Source of the DNA: a virus
Taxonomy: Duplodnaviria; Caudoviricetes
DNA: 41,787 bases
Strand: one strand, 5' to 3'
Virus record (IMG/VR): IMGVR_UViG_3300025759_000197
Location: 1-41,787 of that record
Each line of letters opens with the position of its first letter. The stretch's first letter is position 1. A model generated the notes under the pieces. That model searched no databases and was not told the origin of the DNA. It was given only the letters and a program-made list of their open reading frames with translations. The translations under genes were made by a program, and so were the position numbers. Shown here piece by piece: positions 2,021-16,099 of the stretch.

Positions 2021-3087
2021 TGGCTTATACAACAATTAATAAATCTACAGATTATTTTAATACTAAACTTTATACTGGTAATGGTTCAACTCAATCTATT
2101 ACAGGTGTTGGCTTTTCAGATTGGGTTTGGATTAAATCAAGAAGTGATACAAGTAATCATAGAATATATGATGCTGTTAGAGGTGGAACAAAAACACTTT
2201 ATTCAAATTTAACTAATGCACAAGGAACTAATGCAGATGCTATAACTTCTTTTGATAGTGATGGTTTTACTTTAGGTGCTAATGCTCAATCAAATGGAAA
2301 TGGTTTAAGTTTAGCTTCTTGGAACTGGAAAGCAAATGGTACTGGTTCAGCAAATACAGATGGAAGCATAACCTCAACTGTTAGTGCTAATACAACAAGT
2401 GGATTTTCAATCGTAAAATGGACAGCAGGTTCAGGTGTAAGTGGGATTGGACATGGTCTTGGAGTAATTCCAAAATTAATTATTTGTAAAAATTTAAGTG
2501 TATCTTCAGCATGGACTGTTGGAAGTGATTTACTGAATGATTGGGGTGGTTATTTAGGTTTACAAAGTACAAATGCTCTAAATTCTGAAACTAGAATGTA
2601 TAAGCCATCAGGTTATTCATCTCCAACTGCTTCTCTTTTTTATCAAGACCATTCAGCATTTGGTAGTGCAGGTGAAGATATGATAGCTTACTGCTTCGCA
2701 GAAAAAACTGGTTATAGCAAGTTTGGTTCTTATACTGGTAATGGTTCTACTGATGGAACATTTGTTTATACAGGATTTAAACCTGCATTTGTTATGATTA
2801 AATGCTCATCATCTGGTGGCTCTTATACATCTTGGTCAATATTTGATACTACTAGACAAACTTTTAATGTTAATTCTGGAAAAACTTTATATGCAAACCG
2901 AAGTTATGAAGAGGGTAAAAGAGGTCAAGGAGATGCAAGTACAACTATTCCAGGAATAGATATGTTATCAAATGGTTTTAAATGTAGAGTATTAAATGAC
3001 GAAGTTAATAATACAGCAGAATACATCTACATGGCATTTGGTCAATCATTAGTAGGTTCAAACAATGTACCATGTACAGCGAGGTAA
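2020..3087 (+). CDS. Tail fibre-associated protein with YTGNG repeats
   Basis: Repeated LYTGNGS / SYTGNGS, WVWIKSR and TGFKPAFVMIK motifs typical of marine phage fibre modules; TAATG coupling. Confidence 0.7.
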   Translation: MAYTTINKSTDYFNTKLYTGNGSTQSITGVGFSDWVWIKSRSDTSNHRIYDAVRGGTKTLYSNLTNAQGTNADAITSFDSDGFTLGANAQSNGNGLSLASWNWKANGTGSANTDGSITSTVSANTTSGFSIVKWTAGSGVSGIGHGLGVIPKLIICKNLSVSSAWTVGSDLLNDWGGYLGLQSTNALNSETRMYKPSGYSSPTASLFYQDHSAFGSAGEDMIAYCFAEKTGYSKFGSYTGNGSTDGTFVYTGFKPAFVMIKCSSSGGSYTSWSIFDTTRQTFNVNSGKTLYANRSYEEGKRGQGDASTTIPGIDMLSNGFKCRVLNDEVNNTAEYIYMAFGQSLVGSNNVPCTAR

Positions 3088-8721: not shown

Positions 8722-9134
8722 AACATACTAAAGAAGCAATTAAGAAAGAAGAAGGTTTCCGAATGGAGACTTATCATTGTACAGAAGGTCATCTCACAGG
8801 TGGCTATGGACACAAGATGCTAGAAGGCGAAGTACCACCTACAGATAAAGCAGGGTGGGATAAGTTATTTGAAAGAGACTTTGCTAAAGCTGTATCTGGT
8901 GCAGATGAAGTATTAAAAGAATGTCCTGCTGATATAAGTGAAACTGCAAGAAATCTTGTGGTGGAGATGGTGTATCAAATGGGTCAATTCGGTGTATCTA
9001 AATTTAAGGGTATGCTTAAAGCATTATCAGAAAAAGATTACAAACAAGCGTCAGTAGAAATGTTAGACAGCAGGTGGGCTAAACAGACACCTAATAGAGC
9101 TAACAGAATGGCTGAACGAATGGCGAATATTTAG
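8712..9134 (+). CDS. Endolysin, T4-lysozyme-like muramidase
   Basis: EEG..Y.C..G.LT.GYGH with E-x8-C-x5-T catalytic spacing, MVYQMG, EMLDSRWAKQTPNRA. Confidence 0.92.
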   Translation: MDIEHTKEAIKKEEGFRMETYHCTEGHLTGGYGHKMLEGEVPPTDKAGWDKLFERDFAKAVSGADEVLKECPADISETARNLVVEMVYQMGQFGVSKFKGMLKALSEKDYKQASVEMLDSRWAKQTPNRANRMAERMANI

Positions 9135-9463
9135 TAGAAAAATCTGTGGGGGTATACGTTATAATGAAAACCACAGTTTCCCCCACACGCCTGACGCGAG
9201 GGCGTAGAAAATGATTATTTTTCAAGTATATCGCGGCTGTCGTGCCTGTATATACGCAAAGGAGTTCATATCCTTGCACACATGGGCGTTAACTTTTTTT
9301 ATTTTTGCGTGTGTGAGAGATAGTCTGTTTTTTTGCTTTCTCTTTATCTATACGCACAGACACACGCAAAGCACCACAACAAACACCACCACAAGCCACA
9401 CAGAGCCACGCACAGAGCAATCAAGGGAGCAACGCAGGGGTTGGGTCATGTTGTTTTAAATAC

Positions 9464-9481
9464 TAAAGTTGCACTATTAGA
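9464..9481 (+). promoter_or_regulatory. Putative phage-RNAP promoter (phiOR-like position)
   Basis: TAAAGTTGCACTATTAGA, identical 18-mer at 16324; two-base variants at 26638 and 40883. Confidence 0.8.
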
Positions 9482-9584
9482 TGAGAGCAAAAGAAAAGAA
9501 TATACTCTGTGTATCTCTTTGAGTATCTCTTCAAGTACATCATCAAGTAATACATCAAGAGACAATCAACATTAATATATTAAT

Positions 9585-9740
9585 ATGAATAGAACTAACT
9601 GGTTAAAGACAGACGCAGGAAAACTCTACAAAGCCAGAACAAATAAGAATTACAGACAAAAGAAAAAAGAAGACAAAAAGAAATCTTTGAAAGTTAATAA
9701 ATCTTTTTCTTTTCACTTTCCCAAAGAACACAATCCATAA
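9585..9740 (+). CDS. Small basic protein (51 aa) in the T7 gene 19.5 position, not in ORF track
   Basis: MNRTNWLKTDAGKLYKARTNKNYRQKKKEDKKKSLKVNKSFSFHFPKEHNP*; follows the promoter; no clear SD. Confidence 0.5.
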   Translation: MNRTNWLKTDAGKLYKARTNKNYRQKKKEDKKKSLKVNKSFSFHFPKEHNP

Positions 9741-10063
9741 GTGATTTAATTAATATTCCTACATAATCCCATTTAATCCTTTAATCTCCCATAATTGCCT
9801 ATTTATAGGGTTTATTAACTATTTTACAGGTGCGACACTGTGTCAGGTTCTATTATCCACAAATACATATATTCAAGGGGAATGTTTATTTTTTTAAAAT
9901 TTTTTGATAATCTACAGGCTCTATTAGCCATTTCAAAAAACAGTGCCAAAGTCGGCTGAAAACCTGCGGATAGGTTTTCTCTGGGCTAGTTGTCTCTAGG
10001 GACTTTGGAAAATCCACTCGGAGTTGGGAACGACCTTTAACGAGGGTTAGCCACTCCAAAAGT

Positions 10064-10125
10064 TTGTGGTTGTCTGTATCTATTAGATACACTGAAGAGG
10101 CTTCGCAAAGCCGAAACAATCAACA
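10064..10125 (+). ncRNA. Hammerhead ribozyme, type III
   Basis: GUC site 10072-74; stem I TGTATC 10075-80/GATACA 10086-91; CUGAAGA 10092-98; stem II GGCTT/AAGCC 10099-10112; GAAA 10113-16; stem III TGGTTGT 10067-73/ACAATCA 10116-22. Confidence 0.9.
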
Positions 10126-10147
10126 ATCAACAATAGGAGTGAACCAC

Positions 10148-10318
10148 ATGAGAATTTCACATGCAGTTCAAAAGATACAAGGTGCTATCTCTCTGGCAAA
10201 GTTCAAAGACGAACAAGCCAAGAAGGAACACTTTGACACCTACTCCAAAGCGAAGACAAAGGAACAAAAAATAAAATTGTTCCGAGAAGCTATCGCAGAA
10301 GGTTGGGTTAGTGCCTAG
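10148..10318 (+). CDS. Early protein (56 aa), hypothetical
   Basis: SD AGGAG 10135-39 supports ATG 10148 rather than the track start at 10064, which would run through the ribozyme. Confidence 0.75.
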   Translation: MRISHAVQKIQGAISLAKFKDEQAKKEHFDTYSKAKTKEQKIKLFREAIAEGWVSA

Positions 10319-10469
10319 ACAATTAAATTTGTTTAGTGCTGAAGAGTTGGCGGACTGTTATTTACATTCAGTTGTAATTAAGAGAGTTCGCCAAGCTCTA
10401 CACAAAGAGAAACAGAAAAAACAGAAACTTGGTCAGGTGATAAAGTTTCCTATTAAATTTGTTTCTTAA
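10311..10469 (+). CDS. Early protein (52 aa) with QLNLF motif, not in ORF track
   Basis: GTG start; MPRQLNLFSAEELADCYLHSVVIKRVRQALHKEKQKKQKLGQVIKFPIKFVS*; TAATG coupling to the next gene. Confidence 0.65.
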   Translation: MPRQLNLFSAEELADCYLHSVVIKRVRQALHKEKQKKQKLGQVIKFPIKFVS

Positions 10470-10648
10470 TGTTTTACAGTCCAAAGTATTGGGCGGAGTT
10501 AAAAGCCAAACGCAAAGCAGAAGAAAAGAAACTTGAAATTGTTTCTAGTGCAGAGCAGGACGCAGAAGCCAAACAAGAACAGGCAGAGGCGGACAAGTTG
10601 GCAAAAGACAAATTCCACCAATGGAAAGTGAAATATTCTAAAATCTAA
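10469..10648 (+). CDS. Early coiled-coil protein (59 aa), not in ORF track
   Basis: MFYSPKYWAELKAKRKAEEKK...FHQWKVKYSKI*. Confidence 0.7.
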   Translation: MFYSPKYWAELKAKRKAEEKKLEIVSSAEQDAEAKQEQAEADKLAKDKFHQWKVKYSKI

Positions 10649-10710
10649 AACAATGGGCGGTGCAATATCCGCCCTTGTTCAATCAACAATCAACAACAAT
10701 GGAGACCACA

Positions 10711-10995
10711 ATGAACGTAAGACAAATGACAAGCCCAAGAAGCCACAACGCTGTGGCAAATCAATTCATTATTAACGACAACAATGGAAATCAATATTTT
10801 CAAAGTTATCGTTCTTTAATAGTAAAAAAATGTGCTGATGGCAGAATATTCCTAGACGAGAACACTTGGGACTATTCAAGAACGACAGGAAAATACAGAA
10901 ATGAATTTCTTGGCGAGAATACAGCAGAGACACGAAAAAAGATAAAAAGCGGAGAATACATTTTGACCGACTTAAACAGCAAGGCGGTGGCGTAA
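10711..10995 (+). CDS. Conserved phage early protein, function unknown
   Basis: SD GGAG 10701-04; ANQFII, FQSY.S.I, WDYSRTT.KY motifs recurrent in phage early regions. Confidence 0.8.
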   Translation: MNVRQMTSPRSHNAVANQFIINDNNGNQYFQSYRSLIVKKCADGRIFLDENTWDYSRTTGKYRNEFLGENTAETRKKIKSGEYILTDLNSKAVA

Positions 10996-11159
10996 TGTTT
11001 AGAGCAATTTTAATTGCAATAGCTTTTGCACTTTGTTTTGCTTTGATGTTTCTAGGTGTTATTATTTCAATTCATTTTAGCACTTGGCTAGGTCTAGCAT
11101 TAACAGCAGTGGCAACTTTAAAATTCTGGTCATACTTACCAGAGTTAAACCAAATATAA
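10995..11159 (+). CDS. Early two-TM membrane protein (54 aa), not in ORF track
   Basis: MFRAILIAIAFALCFALMFLGVIISIHFSTWLGLALTAVATLKFWSYLPELNQI*; TAATG coupling. Confidence 0.7.
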   Translation: MFRAILIAIAFALCFALMFLGVIISIHFSTWLGLALTAVATLKFWSYLPELNQI

Positions 11160-11350
11160 AACTTGAAGCGGTGGCAGGTCTACCGCTTTGAGATTTATAT
11201 TGCGTAAATAACTTGCGAGGATAAGCAAGGATAAAGCAATAAAAATCAAATGTTGTCTAGTTTTGCGTTAACTCTTCGGTGGTTCTTTAATCACAGTCAA
11301 CGCTTCACTAGACGACATTTTTAAATCAACAATCAACAAAGGAGAAAAAC

Positions 11351-11581
11351 ATGTACACAAGTATAGAAAATGTAAAACTAACTGAAGTTGAAACAGAAAA
11401 AGGCAAATGGAAAGGCAAAAAGTTTGTCAATTATAAAAACCCTATTGAGAAAAACAAAAAAGTTGTTTTTGAAGATGAATACTCAAACTTAATGGATATT
11501 GCTTCAGAAGTAAAACACGCTTCAGAGAGAAGCCCTCACAAAGTAATTAGGGTTAGCTTTGATGTAAGTGCGGAGTGGTAA
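11351..11581 (+). CDS. Early protein, hypothetical
   Basis: ORF track; SD AAAGGAG. Confidence 0.8.
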   Translation: MYTSIENVKLTEVETEKGKWKGKKFVNYKNPIEKNKKVVFEDEYSNLMDIASEVKHASERSPHKVIRVSFDVSAEW

Positions 11582-11585
11582 TTGA

Positions 11586-11756
11586 GTGAGTTATAAAAAA
11601 TACAAAATAAGAGATGGCGTTCACATACCAAGCGATAAATTTCGCAAAAATTGGGACGCCATCTTTGGCAAGAAACCAAAAAAACCTAAAAAAAACACAA
11701 TTACAAAAAGCAAAACTGACGAGGTTTTAATAACCGAAACGCCTTCTAAAAACTAG
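11586..11756 (+). CDS. Small basic early protein (56 aa), not in ORF track
   Basis: GTG start with GGAG SD; MSYKKYKIRDGVHIPSDKFRKNWDAIFGKKPKK...ETPSKN*. Confidence 0.65.
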   Translation: MSYKKYKIRDGVHIPSDKFRKNWDAIFGKKPKKPKKNTITKSKTDEVLITETPSKN

Positions 11757-11777
11757 GCGGCGTATTTTGCACGTGAA
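11700..11777 (+). ncRNA. Hammerhead ribozyme, type I
   Basis: Stem I GCAAAA 11710-15/TTTTGC 11765-70; CUGACGA 11716-22; stem II GGTT/AACC 11723-35; GAAA 11736-39; stem III ACGCC 11739-43/GGCGT 11759-63; GUA site, cut after A11764. Confidence 0.88.
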
Positions 11778-11794
11778 TATCGCATAAAATCTTC

Positions 11795-11824
11795 TTGCAC
11801 ATATTATGTGCGACAGGATAGCAT
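11795..11824 (+). promoter_or_regulatory. Putative sigma70 promoter with overlapping palindromic operator
   Basis: TTGCAC-N18-TAGCAT; perfect palindrome GCACATA-T-TATGTGC over the -35 and spacer. Confidence 0.55.
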
Positions 11825-11865
11825 ACGTTATAAAAATAACACATAAGCAAAAAGAAAGGAGAAAC

Positions 11866-11940
11866 GTGAGAAAACATATAGTATATACGTTTAACAATGC
11901 GTGGTGTAATCAATTATTATTAATGCCAAATATAACTTAA
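11866..11940 (+). CDS. Possible 24-aa peptide
   Basis: Strong SD GAAAGGAG plus GTG; MRKHIVYTFNNAWCNQLLLMPNIT*. Confidence 0.4.
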   Translation: MRKHIVYTFNNAWCNQLLLMPNIT

Positions 11941-11953
11941 AAAAGGAGTAAAA

Positions 11954-12082
11954 ATGACAATAAATTTTATTCTTTTTAAAGTCTATATTGAAAAATATAG
12001 TAATTGGAGTAATCTAAAAGTGAGTAAGGATAAATACGAAACAATGGTTGATATTGGCTATTGGAAATTTTATTTATCTTAA
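11954..12082 (+). CDS. Small protein (42 aa), not in ORF track
   Basis: SD AAGGAG; MTINFILFKVYIEKYSNWSNLKVSKDKYETMVDIGYWKFYLS*. Confidence 0.65.
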   Translation: MTINFILFKVYIEKYSNWSNLKVSKDKYETMVDIGYWKFYLS

Positions 12083-12150
12083 CATTAAACAAAGTGTGGT
12101 TGCTTCACTTTGTAAAAACAAGAGACAACAAACAGAAAGAAGAAAGACTA

Positions 12151-12486
12151 ATGACAAGTAGCGGATTAAATCTATTAAAAATAATAGAAGAAATGCGAAA
12201 GTTTGATACACAAATTGAGGCACAGGCTATTGCTGTGTTTTTGTTTGTTGCGGTTCATGGTGGAAAAGAAGGCGTTGCCATGCAAACTATAAGTGACGAC
12301 CTAGACATGGCTCAATCTTCAGTGTCAAGAAACTGTTATAAATTAGCAGATGTAAATAGACACAAAAAGACTGGGATAGGTTTAGTACAGACTTTTGAAG
12401 ACCCAATGGAAAGACGAAGGAAGTTAGTTAGTCTTACATCAAAAGGCAAGAGAGTTTACAATACTCTTTTGGAATGGGTTAAATAA
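12151..12486 (+). CDS. MarR-like winged-HTH regulator (candidate repressor or recombination directionality factor)
   Basis: ISDDLDMAQSSVSRNCYKL helix-turn-helix and DPMERRRKLVSLTSKG wing; adjacent to integrase; ATG 12151 preferred over TTG 12061. Confidence 0.85.
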   Translation: MTSSGLNLLKIIEEMRKFDTQIEAQAIAVFLFVAVHGGKEGVAMQTISDDLDMAQSSVSRNCYKLADVNRHKKTGIGLVQTFEDPMERRRKLVSLTSKGKRVYNTLLEWVK

Positions 12487-12505
12487 CAATGAAAGGCGGT
12501 ACAGT

Positions 12506-13387
12506 ATGCAGAGTACAAATCCAAAACTGCTTACAGAAATACACCGCAAACTTACTCTTAAAGGGTGGGAAAAGTTACAACAAAAACGAGCCGAAAAAAT
12601 AATTACAATGTTAGGTCGTGGAATGTTAGTAACTGAAGTAACTGATAATCATGTAGAACATGTTGTTGATACTCTTGAAAACAGAGGTTATCAAGGTTCT
12701 ACAATTAATCGGTATCTGTCCTCACTCTCAAAGATGTTAAGATATGCCAATCAGAGACAATCTATTTATCATCTTGATAGAATGCCTCACATTGATTGGA
12801 ATAGAGAGGACAATGGTAGAGAACGATACCTTGAACTAGAAGAAGAAAAAGAAATTATTAGATTGTTAACCGAATGGAATATGGTTGACTATTTAGAATT
12901 TTTTTTAGTTCTAATAGACACAGGTATGAGACTTGGCGAAGCGTTATCTATTAAGAAGTTAATGGTTCATAACAACAATGGAAACTATGTTGTTAATTTA
13001 CCTGCTAGTGTTACCAAAAATGGTGAACCTAGAGGTGTACCACTAACAGAACGAGCAAAGTCTATTGTTGTCAAACTGTTGGACAAAGCGGAAAGAAACG
13101 ACTTGGTATTTAAACACTTAAAATATTGGACGTGTGAGAATACTTGGAGACGTTTAAGAAAAGCAATGAACCTTGAAGAAGACAAAGAGTTTGTCATTCA
13201 TTGTTTACGACATACTTGTGCTACTAGGTTGGCTCAATCAGGGAAGGTAGAACTTCACATGATTGGTCAAATGCTAGGTCATAAGTCATGGAAGATGATA
13301 AAAAGATACGCCCATTTAATTCCAAATAATTTAATGGGTGCAGTAAATGTTCTTAATGGGATTAATAAAAATATGCAATCCAGTTAA
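12506..13387 (+). CDS. int: Tyrosine recombinase/integrase
   Basis: DTGMRLGE (R), TKNG (K), HCLRHT (HxxR), LGH and RYAH (Y) catalytic set intact. Confidence 0.96.
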   Translation: MQSTNPKLLTEIHRKLTLKGWEKLQQKRAEKIITMLGRGMLVTEVTDNHVEHVVDTLENRGYQGSTINRYLSSLSKMLRYANQRQSIYHLDRMPHIDWNREDNGRERYLELEEEKEIIRLLTEWNMVDYLEFFLVLIDTGMRLGEALSIKKLMVHNNNGNYVVNLPASVTKNGEPRGVPLTERAKSIVVKLLDKAERNDLVFKHLKYWTCENTWRRLRKAMNLEEDKEFVIHCLRHTCATRLAQSGKVELHMIGQMLGHKSWKMIKRYAHLIPNNLMGAVNVLNGINKNMQSS

Positions 13388-13473
13388 GGATTAGTTCTAG
13401 TATGAGGATAGTTGATTAATTATGTTTATTAATACAAGTAAAAGAGACTGTTCCACTGTCGCATGGGTACAAT

Positions 13474-13514
13474 AGGATTTGCAATCCTCTGCGTAACCAT
13501 TCCGCCACGTTGCC
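13474..13514 (-). other. attP core: 5' half of tRNA-Cys(GCA)
   Basis: Minus strand GGCAACGTGGCGGAATGGTTACGCAGAGGATTGCAAATCCT gives acceptor 5' strand, D arm and anticodon arm with GCA; no T arm follows; directly downstream of int. Confidence 0.88.
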
Positions 13515-13639
13515 ATCTCGTTTATTTTATAAGTAAACACTCAACTATTCTCTACTACATCTTTAAAAAATAATCAAAGGACTAAACTTAATTTGTAAGC
13601 CATTCCTTTGGTGCATCAATCAACAAATAGGAGAATAAA

Positions 13640-16099
13640 TTGAAAATACTAGAAATAATGCCGACATACAAAGACCAACACCTAAATGAAACTATGTCTA
13701 AAGATTTAGGTAAAAATAGAACAAACAAAAGGCGTATATCCCATATTGAAAGAGGTGAAGAAAGTGTAACTTCCTATGGTAAAGTCATAGTAGCCAATAC
13801 TATACGACCTTTAGCTATCGCAATAGCAGAATGGGTAGAACAAAGTATTCAAAATGTTCATTCCAAAACTCCCATTGCTCTTAAATATATCTCCCAAGTA
13901 GACCCAAAGATACTGGCGTTGATAACTGCAAAGCATGTAATCAATACTATTACCCATACTAAAAATCTAACTGCTACTGCCATAACACTAGGCGGAAGAG
14001 TTGAGACAGAGATAAGTTTAAAAAACTTTAAGGCTCTTAATCCTGAACTATACGAAACTGTAAGAAGAGATTTAGATAAAAGGTCTTGGAACTACAATTA
14101 TAAAAGAAGAAAGTTAAGAGAAAGTGCTAAACGAGACAGTGTTATGAAGTGGGAAGAATGGTCTACTACTGAAAGACTACATGTTGGAATGGAATTGATA
14201 GGTCTGCTTATTGAAAGTACAGGACTTGTTGAAATCTCCCAAGAACAACATAAGCATAAAACTGTTAAAGTTATTAAACAAACTGAAAAGACTAAACAGT
14301 GGATTAACAATAGAAATGACTTTAACGAACTATTAAACCCTGAATACTTAATGATGGTTATGCCACCAAAAATGGTTGAAGATGGGAAAATTTCTGGTCA
14401 TGGATATTGGACTGATGAACTCCCAGATTTAGATTTAGTTAAACAAAAAGGTAAGAAATTTAACCAAGAGATAGAAGGTTTTTCTATGCCTGAAGTAACT
14501 AAAGCTATTAACTTAATGCAGGGTACAGCTTATAAAATTAATAGATTTGTCCTTAATGTAATGCAAAATGCTTGGGACAAAGGAATGTCTATTGGTGGTA
14601 TGCCACCCATAGAAAACCTGCCATTACCTAATAAGCCTCATAATATAAGTGAAGACACTGAAGAGGGCAAAGCCGCACTCAAAAAGTTTAAGAAAGATAG
14701 TGTCATTGTTCACACAGAGAATAACAGAATGGTATCAAAGAGGTTATTGTACGCTAAAATTATTTGGTTAGCCCAAAAGTTTGTACAATATCTAACACTT
14801 TATTTCCCACTACAATTAGATTTTAGAGGTAGGGCTTATTGTGTTCCTGCTTTTTTAAACTATCAGTCTATTGGTGGTGCTAAAGCATTGCTTAATTTTT
14901 CAGAGGGCAAAGCTATTACTAAAGAAAATAGAGGTGTCTTTTGGTTAGCTGTTCATGGCTCTAACATGTGGGGTAATGATAAAGTCTCATTAGAAGATAG
15001 AGAAAAATGGGCTTACGATAACCTAGAATGGATAAAAGCCTGTGGTACTGACCCAATAAGTAATAGACAATGGGAAGACGCAGATAGTCCTTTTCAGTTT
15101 CTTGCTTTTTGTGATGAATGGAAAAGATACCATGACACAGGAGATGGCTTTGTTTCTCATATACCTGTAAACGTAGATGGCTCTTGTAATGGGCTTCAAA
15201 TTTATTCTCTTTTATTAAGAGATAAAGTTGCAGGTAAATTAGTTAACTGTATTCCTAGTGAAACACCGCAAGACATATACCAATTAGTTGCTGATGAAGT
15301 TATTAAAACTTTAAAAGTTAAAGCTGAAGAAGGTGATGACTTGGCGAAGAAATGGTTAGCTTATGGTGTTAAGCGTTCTACTTGTAAAAGACCTATTATG
15401 ACAATTTGTTATGGGTCTACTAGATATTCTTGTACTGACTTTGTAGTAGAAGATTTAACTAAACGAAAAGATAAAGGTGAAATGCACCCTTTTGATGACA
15501 TGTTTAAACCTGCTACTTATTTGTCTAAAATTATTTGGTCAAGTATAGGTGAAAACTTAAAGTCAGCTAGACAAGGAATGGATTTTTTACAAGGCATAGC
15601 GAAAGTTATTGCTAAAACAGGTCAGCCAATACATTGGACTACACCTGTTGGATTTCCAGTATTTCAATTCTATCCTGAAATGAAAAGTAAAAGAATAAAA
15701 TCAAATCTTATGGGAGAAGTTATTATGCCTCAAATAAAAGAAGAAACTGAAGGTACTGACAAACTACGAACTCGTAATGCGGCGGCGGCTAATTATGTTC
15801 ACAGCCTAGATAGTGCTTGTATGATTAGAACTGTTAATATTGCAAAAGAAAAAGGTATTAATAATTTTTGTAATGTGCATGACAGCTTTGCTACCCATGC
15901 TTGTGATATTGATAAACTTAATGAAAGCATAAGAGAAGCATTTGTAGAAATCTTTAGTGAAGATTTATTTGGCAAATTAAAAAAAGATGCTTCGCTTTTA
16001 GTGGAAGACAAGGAAGCTGTTAAAAGGTTTCCTGAAGTTCCTGAAAATGGCGACTTGGAATTGGCTTTACTACATCAATCCAAGTTTTTCTTTGCCTAA
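13640..16099 (+). CDS. Single-subunit DNA-directed RNA polymerase (T7 gp1-like)
   Basis: DFRGRAY, VDGSCNGLQ (motif A), RSTCKRPIMTICYG (motif B), VHDSF (motif C); TTG start with SD AGGAG. Confidence 0.98.
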   Translation: MKILEIMPTYKDQHLNETMSKDLGKNRTNKRRISHIERGEESVTSYGKVIVANTIRPLAIAIAEWVEQSIQNVHSKTPIALKYISQVDPKILALITAKHVINTITHTKNLTATAITLGGRVETEISLKNFKALNPELYETVRRDLDKRSWNYNYKRRKLRESAKRDSVMKWEEWSTTERLHVGMELIGLLIESTGLVEISQEQHKHKTVKVIKQTEKTKQWINNRNDFNELLNPEYLMMVMPPKMVEDGKISGHGYWTDELPDLDLVKQKGKKFNQEIEGFSMPEVTKAINLMQGTAYKINRFVLNVMQNAWDKGMSIGGMPPIENLPLPNKPHNISEDTEEGKAALKKFKKDSVIVHTENNRMVSKRLLYAKIIWLAQKFVQYLTLYFPLQLDFRGRAYCVPAFLNYQSIGGAKALLNFSEGKAITKENRGVFWLAVHGSNMWGNDKVSLEDREKWAYDNLEWIKACGTDPISNRQWEDADSPFQFLAFCDEWKRYHDTGDGFVSHIPVNVDGSCNGLQIYSLLLRDKVAGKLVNCIPSETPQDIYQLVADEVIKTLKVKAEEGDDLAKKWLAYGVKRSTCKRPIMTICYGSTRYSCTDFVVEDLTKRKDKGEMHPFDDMFKPATYLSKIIWSSIGENLKSARQGMDFLQGIAKVIAKTGQPIHWTTPVGFPVFQFYPEMKSKRIKSNLMGEVIMPQIKEETEGTDKLRTRNAAAANYVHSLDSACMIRTVNIAKEKGINNFCNVHDSFATHACDIDKLNESIREAFVEIFSEDLFGKLKKDASLLVEDKEAVKRFPEVPENGDLELALLHQSKFFFA

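Follow-up and report, generated by a model that had tools for sequence, protein, structure and literature searches.

Clusters of hammerhead ribozymes in phage genomes have been known since 2011. Perreault et al. (2011; PMC3088659), in the portion of that paper available to us, describe such clusters flanking genes in prophages of Agrobacterium tumefaciens and Azorhizobium caulinodans, and in the Agrobacterium prophage three hammerheads that lie upstream of a marR-tRNA-integrase segment cleave both in vitro and in E. coli. According to the same available text, the authors proposed that a long phage RNA is processed by these elements into mRNAs the length of a gene or an operon (PMC3088659). A review from 2019, in its accessible part, still lists the purpose of bacterial and phage hammerheads as something to be defined (PMC6765202). 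Searching the literature on hammerheads in phage early genes or in the Autographiviridae, we found Perreault et al. (2011) alone, and no earlier report of a pelagiphage hammerhead was found in a search that was short on subscription papers. The readable parts of the supplement to Perreault et al. (2011; PMC3088659) contain neither the motif words nor the name 'Pelagibacter'.

The locus described here lies in the window, by which we mean the whole 41.8 kb stretch of DNA that was analysed, from a T7-like phage of the HTVC019P-type pelagiphages. With positions 11000-13500 as query, blastn matched 23 records, 21 of which are Pelagibacter phages, and the top matches were HTVC121P and HTVC021P at ~88% identity. 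Like the clusters of Perreault and colleagues, the window has at least two hammerheads that flank a short block of genes on the coding strand and lie near the marR and integrase genes of a temperate phage; ArdA, a member of the Agrobacterium cluster in the available text of that paper, likewise appears in the annotation of the early block in the phage Jormungand. Unlike those clusters, the host here is SAR11, and the overlap with a coding sequence and the order of type III first and type I last are features of the window that we did not see in the available text of Perreault et al. (2011). The pair in the window adds SAR11 phages to the known phage ribozyme clusters, without being a system of a new kind.

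Other comparisons help to place the element. It resembles the type I hammerheads of Rfam in its full core, cleavage triplet and open stem I, but the pelagiphage family has a periphery of its own that is scored by no Rfam model. The early transcript of phage T7 is processed by RNase III, and the predicted cuts in the window are similar in falling at early-gene junctions of a T7-like phage, in RNA made by the host polymerase. While RNase III leaves a 5'-P and a 3'-OH, however, the cut in the window would be RNA-catalysed and would leave a 5'-OH and a cyclic phosphate. As for the glmS ribozyme, in the accessible account of it (PMC6765202), this would be bacterial self-cleavage upstream of genes that yields a downstream fragment with a 5'-OH in a host with RNase J; unlike glmS, which needs a metabolite as its cofactor, the element in the window shows no sign of a ligand.

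The early region and its two hammerheads

The features of the region are collected in Table 1. If transcription runs without a stop, the predicted product between both cuts would be an RNA of 1,690 nt (10075-11764). Beyond the type I cut, the marR start follows after 387 nt and the integrase start after 742 nt. The 40-nt core of the predicted attP matches at least 120 genome stretches exactly, and among the 80 matches listed all are SAR11; attP also lies between integrase and RNA polymerase in the available text of a preprint on this phage group (bioRxiv 10.1101/410191). No prophage with the window's integrase was found among the GTDB genomes.

Table 1. Coordinates of the hammerheads and neighbouring features in the window
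Feature	Position	Strand	Remarks
Second hammerhead, type III	10067..10122	+	stems 7/5/7 bp; predicted cut 10074/10075, GUC
Small early genes, function unassigned	10148..11756	+	between both hammerheads
Strong terminator-like hairpin	11162..11192	+	inside early block; terminator-type listing
Last early ORF, 56 aa, YKIRDGVHIP family	11586..11756	+	no Pfam or PHROG hit
Type I hammerhead motif	11710..11770	+	predicted cut 11764/11765, GUA
Type I, stem I	11710-11715/11765-11770		6 bp, open
Type I, core CUGACGA	11716-11722		
Type I, core GAAA	11736-11739		
Type I, stem II	11723-11726/11732-11735		4 bp; loop of 5 nt
Type I, stem III	11739-11748/11754-11763		9/10 bp; single U-C mismatch
Type I, cleavage triplet GUA	11762-11764		
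Putative host promoter TTGCAC-18-TAGCAT	11795..11824	+	recognized by eye; presumed function
Dyad GCACAT-N3-ATGTGC	11797-11811		in spacer of putative promoter
MarR-like transcriptional regulator	12151..12486	+	
Tyrosine integrase	12506..13387	+	
tRNA-Cys 5' part, predicted attP	13464..13515	-	between integrase and RNA polymerase
T7-type RNA polymerase	13640..16099	+	

An earlier note on this DNA had proposed a type I hammerhead at the boundary between lytic and lysogenic genes, and the identification as type I was upheld. The core agrees throughout with the hammerhead consensus as given in the available text of Perreault et al. (C3 U4 G5 A6 N7 G8 A9, G12 A13 A14, A15.1-U16.1, H17; PMC3088659). 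Stem I is open, stems II and III are closed by loops, and all three helices are paired beside the core, as befits type I. The minimum-energy fold is exactly the three-way junction, with z-scores of -2.0 to -2.9 across four contexts, and the pairing probabilities in context are moderate (0.21-0.49 for stem I and 0.43-0.61 for stem II). A strict descriptor matched twice in the window and in none of 200 dinucleotide shuffles, while a looser one matched seven of 200 shuffles. Covariation among relatives, described below, points the same way. The motif escapes Rfam detection, with no hit at gathering score in the window and no hammerhead at E<=10 in 9000-13700, which limits its assignment to an Rfam family and not to the ribozyme class.

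The same note had extended stem I through an internal loop (TTAC/GTGA), and this part fell away: the ensemble probability of the extension is 0.00, all four of its pairs are kept in only four of 34 relatives, and the complementarity of the flanks is no better than in shuffled sequence (3.85 vs 4.17). Complementarity between loop II and the 3' tail scored 3.94 vs 3.51 in shuffles, with no covariation, and a pseudoknot between the two is only suggestive in this modelling. The periphery of the family is otherwise uniform in its lengths and flanks, with a stem I of exactly 6 bp in 86 of 94 members, an A directly 5' of stem I in 92 and directly 3' of it in 84, and a U at the start of loop II in all 77 five-nucleotide loops. 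Such constant lengths and flanking As suggest a non-canonical tertiary contact.

The type III element, which the earlier note did not contain, ends 14 nt 5' of the GGAG (10136) of the first early gene (ATG 10148), and shares little sequence with the type I copy outside the core. Inside the block, the terminator-like hairpin could terminate or divide the early RNA ahead of the type I site. The stretch 11162-11260, after a 54-aa early gene, combines this hairpin with a second long stem (z -5.2) and is the place where some relatives hold a middle type I hammerhead; its structure is a candidate terminator or RNase III site. In addition, CAATCAACAA repeats stand 5' of the ribosome sites of several genes, that of the RNA polymerase included (10117-10133, 10680-10696, 11330, 13617, 18065), and may form an unstructured leader that is translation-enhancer-like.

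Downstream of the type I cut, the promoter that had been placed there at a distance of ~30 nt was recovered in part: the sequence is plausible, but it was not listed by a consensus scan. The dyad in its spacer is kept in 38 of 51 loci, has a covarying form in L047 and L065 (CAATT-N3-AATTG), and is a candidate MarR operator. Apart from its copy here (11808-11815), the word GTGCGACA is found only upstream of the early block (9830-9837). A CtrA site was considered and rejected; a TTAA-N7-TTAA-like word lies 3' of the cut in many relatives and has two mismatches in the window, and in the accessible text of the CtrA paper (PMC9437464) nothing was found on these phages. Public metatranscriptomes contain near-identical early-gene pieces in two RNA runs, whose contigs start at 10092 and, next to an adapter, at 10136; no contig covers 9850-10071 or bridges 11764/11765. 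As the depth is 2-19 and assembled contigs cannot show ends, these data are no evidence either way.

Conservation and arrangement in related phages

For comparison, 67 IMG/VR loci were fetched by their integrase, not by the RNA; four with an integrase cut at its start were dropped, and two GenBank phages and the window were added. The 57 loci kept have at least 830 nt upstream and include near-duplicates (L004 matches the window). An intact core stands at the same place in 51 of these 57 integrase-selected loci, and a decayed copy in the remaining six. Across 33 distinct sequences (34 aligned), 97.7% of cells pair, against 33-46% in slid controls. Double-sided changes are seen at seven of the 20 pairs; four of the seven belong to stem I, and these four derive from a single clade. 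RNAalifold returned the same fold from the relatives, and in the 34 aligned relatives the core bases are invariant except at N7. By these comparisons the element is selected as RNA, and that in the window is a real and probably active type I hammerhead, with activity judged from conservation.

A U-U mismatch at the base of stem II (10.1/11.1) occurs in five of the 51 intact relatives (L013, L041, L042, L047 and L065), and is absent from the window. It is also found at G010:C1:33566-33594, and persists across three stop contexts and at a second site of one genome; from its sequence, this variant is possibly a slowed natural form.

Seven decayed copies were seen, those of the six loci and one in HTVC105P; in four of the seven the hairpin of stem III has survived, with a short U run behind it. 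In the 4.5-6 kb read from 12 cultured pelagiphages, eight show one hammerhead or more and four show none. The element is dispensable, as these four isolates and the six decayed loci attest. The 3' arm of stem III is also met alone in early regions, where it often takes the form of a repeat or of a hairpin followed by a U run (L002:2337, L284:1779, L285:2562, L286:1664, L288:1174-1437, L289:1896), and such lone arms are possible ribozyme remnants, terminators or recombination joints.

Full early blocks were available in 31 loci, of which 28 carry one to four hammerheads, with no hits on the opposite strand. Type III comes first and type I last in 17 of the 31, while 11 have a single hammerhead only, so that the pair is not obligatory. 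In a wider set of contexts, whose loci were partly picked by hammerhead-like patterns, the stop codon upstream of type I elements lies at -53 to +38 from the core in 75 of 84 cases and always 5' of the cut (in the other nine, the scan for stops reached 30 nt past the element). Type III elements in this set have no ORF within 80 nt upstream in 25 of 37 cases, and an SD-ATG 58-82 nt 3' of the cut in 32 of 35. The type I motif recurs at many ordinary early-gene junctions. HTVC031P, a phage without an integrase according to the available text of the preprint (bioRxiv 10.1101/410191), has hammerheads of types III, II and I, and hammerheads are thus not tied to lysogeny.

The downstream side of the cut varies among relatives. 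In one locus the whole marR region is absent and the hammerhead adjoins the ribosome site of the integrase, with the cut 19 nt before its start (L038:1312-1402), and in L041 and L042 a ribosome site follows the ribozyme with no promoter region; these sites indicate that the downstream piece can be a message. Two uncultured phage contigs are far richer in cores, one with 13 in 6.3 kb (G002:C1:8350-14630; L092, L280, L281), which also has an SU10-type portal and capsid and a Sak protein, and the other with 10 in 4.1 kb (G001:C1:22730-26820; L128). In both, nearly each core comes right after a stop codon, and the cut falls ~20 nt before an AGGAGG ribosome site.

Stop codons and the coding overlap

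The overlap of the hammerhead with a protein C-terminus, also pointed out in the earlier note, is confirmed. The last ~15 codons of the 56-aa ORF, which ends in ...KSKTDEVLITETPSKN*, traverse the core, the TAG (11754-11756) lies inside stem III, and the predicted GUA cut falls 8 nt 3' of it. HTVC121P, HTVC201P and Jormungand have annotated homologues of this ORF. An upstream ORF could be classified in 46 of the intact loci. Thirteen of these place its stop inside stem III as in the window (+38 from the core, hereafter read-through), or 11 if two ORFs that miss a ribosome site are set aside. Another 14 use the UGA of the core itself as the stop, and in the remaining 19 the stop precedes the core by 11-27 nt.

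Read-through is limited to one gene family, with the motif YKIRDGVHIP, in which conservation covers the first ~25 residues but not the lysine-rich tail. The tail is encoded by whatever comes next, which may be an intact or decayed ribozyme or the beginning of the following gene. On a 40-row integrase tree, the read-through state requires eight changes for eight rows. All six decayed copies are read-through, and five of them belong to the window's own integrase clade. Where read-through goes with an intact core, as in isolates including HTVC201P and Jormungand, the 10 different peptides have linkers of four lengths, every one of which keeps the frame; in-frame linkers at four lengths are compatible with selection for read-through.

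The earlier note had named constraint at synonymous sites as a check, and such constraint was observed: across ten read-through loci, the core bases U4 and A14, which fall on third codon positions, do not change, and only N7 varies silently. Changes in the stems of read-through loci alter amino acids in compensating pairs, and together with the fixed third-position core bases this means that the RNA constraint dominates. The coding overlap, by contrast, is on these alignments not a conserved feature. When a ribosome footprint is placed at the stop or over the core in a fold model, stems I and III, or I and II, are lost, so that cleavage would be held back until the site is clear. That ribosomes passively affect when cleavage occurs is physically certain in the model, which does not amount to evidence of regulation. 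With the upstream RNA masked, the model gave no consistent difference between the read-through, core-stop and UTR classes over 24 loci. Most likely, the protein overlap is a passenger, in which a gene whose basic, low-complexity tail may take any sequence borrows the codons and one of the stop codons of the ribozyme.

Proposed processing of the early message

The reading that we favour, and hold to be reasonably probable from the sequence comparisons, is a constitutive cut just after the last early stop, paired with the type III element at the start of the block, by which the early mRNA would be trimmed and protected. The type I element would cleave the early polycistronic RNA constitutively just 3' of the last stop codon. 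The type III cut would give the early message a 5'-OH with a hairpin at its first base; after the type I cut, the message would end in the hairpin of stem III with a 2',3'-cyclic phosphate, 8 nt past an intact stop. The order of type III first and type I last would thus protect the message at both trimmed ends, and the marR-integrase RNA would be uncoupled from it, with ribosomes only postponing cleavage until the site clears. Motifs, covariation, order and the position of every upstream stop found 5' of the cut all support such a pairing. In T7 the same task on the early RNA falls to RNase III.

Five SAR11 genomes with a match to attP each encode RNase III, RNase E and RNase J (5/5 for all three). 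The presence of RNase III in all five rules out the idea that the ribozymes replace a missing RNase III. The glmS fragment is degraded by RNase J1. In the accessible account of glmS, cleavage leads to decay and a 5'-OH fragment can still be destroyed (PMC6765202), so a 5'-OH end need not protect. A 5'-monophosphate, on the other hand, stimulates both RNase E and RNase J according to the available text of PMC3997798, and the ribozyme cuts would leave a 5'-OH in its place.

The type I cut would yield, unlike the type III cut, a single-stranded 5' end, and this is the starting point of a different reading in which the site is a post-transcriptional terminator: the cut would expose an unstructured 5'-OH, host RNase J would clear the read-through RNA, and marR and integrase would be expressed only from their own promoter. 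RNase J in 5/5 hosts fits this, as do the dyad and putative promoter downstream in 38 of 51 loci, the own promoter of marR-int in the T7-like temperate phage LUZ100 (PMC10134795), the drop in downstream expression after glmS cleavage in the accessible account (PMC6765202), and the four of seven decayed copies in which a short U run follows the surviving hairpin of stem III. It sits poorly, however, with the ribosome sites placed directly on the downstream piece in L038, L041 and L042, and with the type I cuts of G001 and G002 just ahead of a strong ribosome site at nearly all junctions, a layout in which the 3' product is normally meant for translation. We consider such a terminator rather unlikely, and note that it is compatible with the trimming of the early message at this single site. 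The earlier note had instead seen a switch, in which ribosomes block the folding of the core, so that cleavage reports translation and gates RNA to the integrase and RNA polymerase. We give this little credence. The coding overlap is real, a footprint at the stop or core does remove stems in the fold model, the 10 read-through peptides stay in frame at all four linker lengths, and the UGA stop would place a terminating ribosome on the core in 14 further loci. Yet the stop is 5' of the core in 19 of 46 loci and read-through accounts for just 13, its state flips freely over the integrase tree, the interchangeable tail has no conserved sequence, the 6/6 decayed copies are read-through, and the same motif is present in integrase-less phages. 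Moreover, a separate putative promoter stands 3' of the cut, and with attP between integrase and RNA polymerase a prophage would part the polymerase from this RNA. A translation-sensing gate between lysis and lysogeny was accordingly not borne out. That the read-through and UGA-stop lineages (27/46) hold a natural translation-gated hammerhead, cutting only when translation of the last gene slackens, also seems improbable to us; if true, run-on of early RNA into marR-integrase would be set by translation, and host translation capacity would be tied to lysis or lysogeny in a common ocean phage group.

Two further readings concern the modules themselves and the fate of the cut RNA. Unrelated genes adjoin the same ribozyme in near-identical phages, the state of the junction does not track the integrase tree, and some phages have 10-13 near-identical copies, as might be expected if the repeats served as recombination joints for early-gene swaps or spread selfishly, with cleavage tolerated. 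But the catalytic bases are invariant while the stems covary, the window's type III and type I elements are alike in little but the core, and the strict polarity of strand and order points to an RNA function, which leaves this reading very unlikely. A 5'-OH and a cyclic phosphate are the ends joined by RtcB-type ligases, and the III-then-I order would put both ligatable ends on one fragment, so that a circular early mRNA could be imagined. This we regard as extremely unlikely: RtcB was found in 0/5 SAR11 genomes, two of which are complete chromosomes, the two ends cannot, by their sequence, pair into one hammerhead, and circular or spliced products were sought in the clusters of Perreault et al. 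and, in the available text, none were found (PMC3088659).

For the preferred reading, constitutive trimming of the early message, the cultured phages offer natural matched variants of the junction: HTVC201P and Jormungand with read-through, HTVC019P with a core stop, HTVC022P and HTVC304P of the UTR class, HTVC121P and HTVC105P with decayed copies, and the integrase-less HTVC031P. An RNA-seq time course of HTVC022P infection has been published, in whose text the word 'ribozyme' does not appear (PMC12753301), and with these matched variants it makes the question of processing directly testable.

Hammerheads are also present in the cultured podovirus elemoC of Flavobacterium (MT497066; L283), at 1189-1243 and 2998-3055. 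Its type III element immediately precedes an operon's first gene and its type I element lies between genes; the latter has 28 bases identical to the element in the window, and 59 records match.
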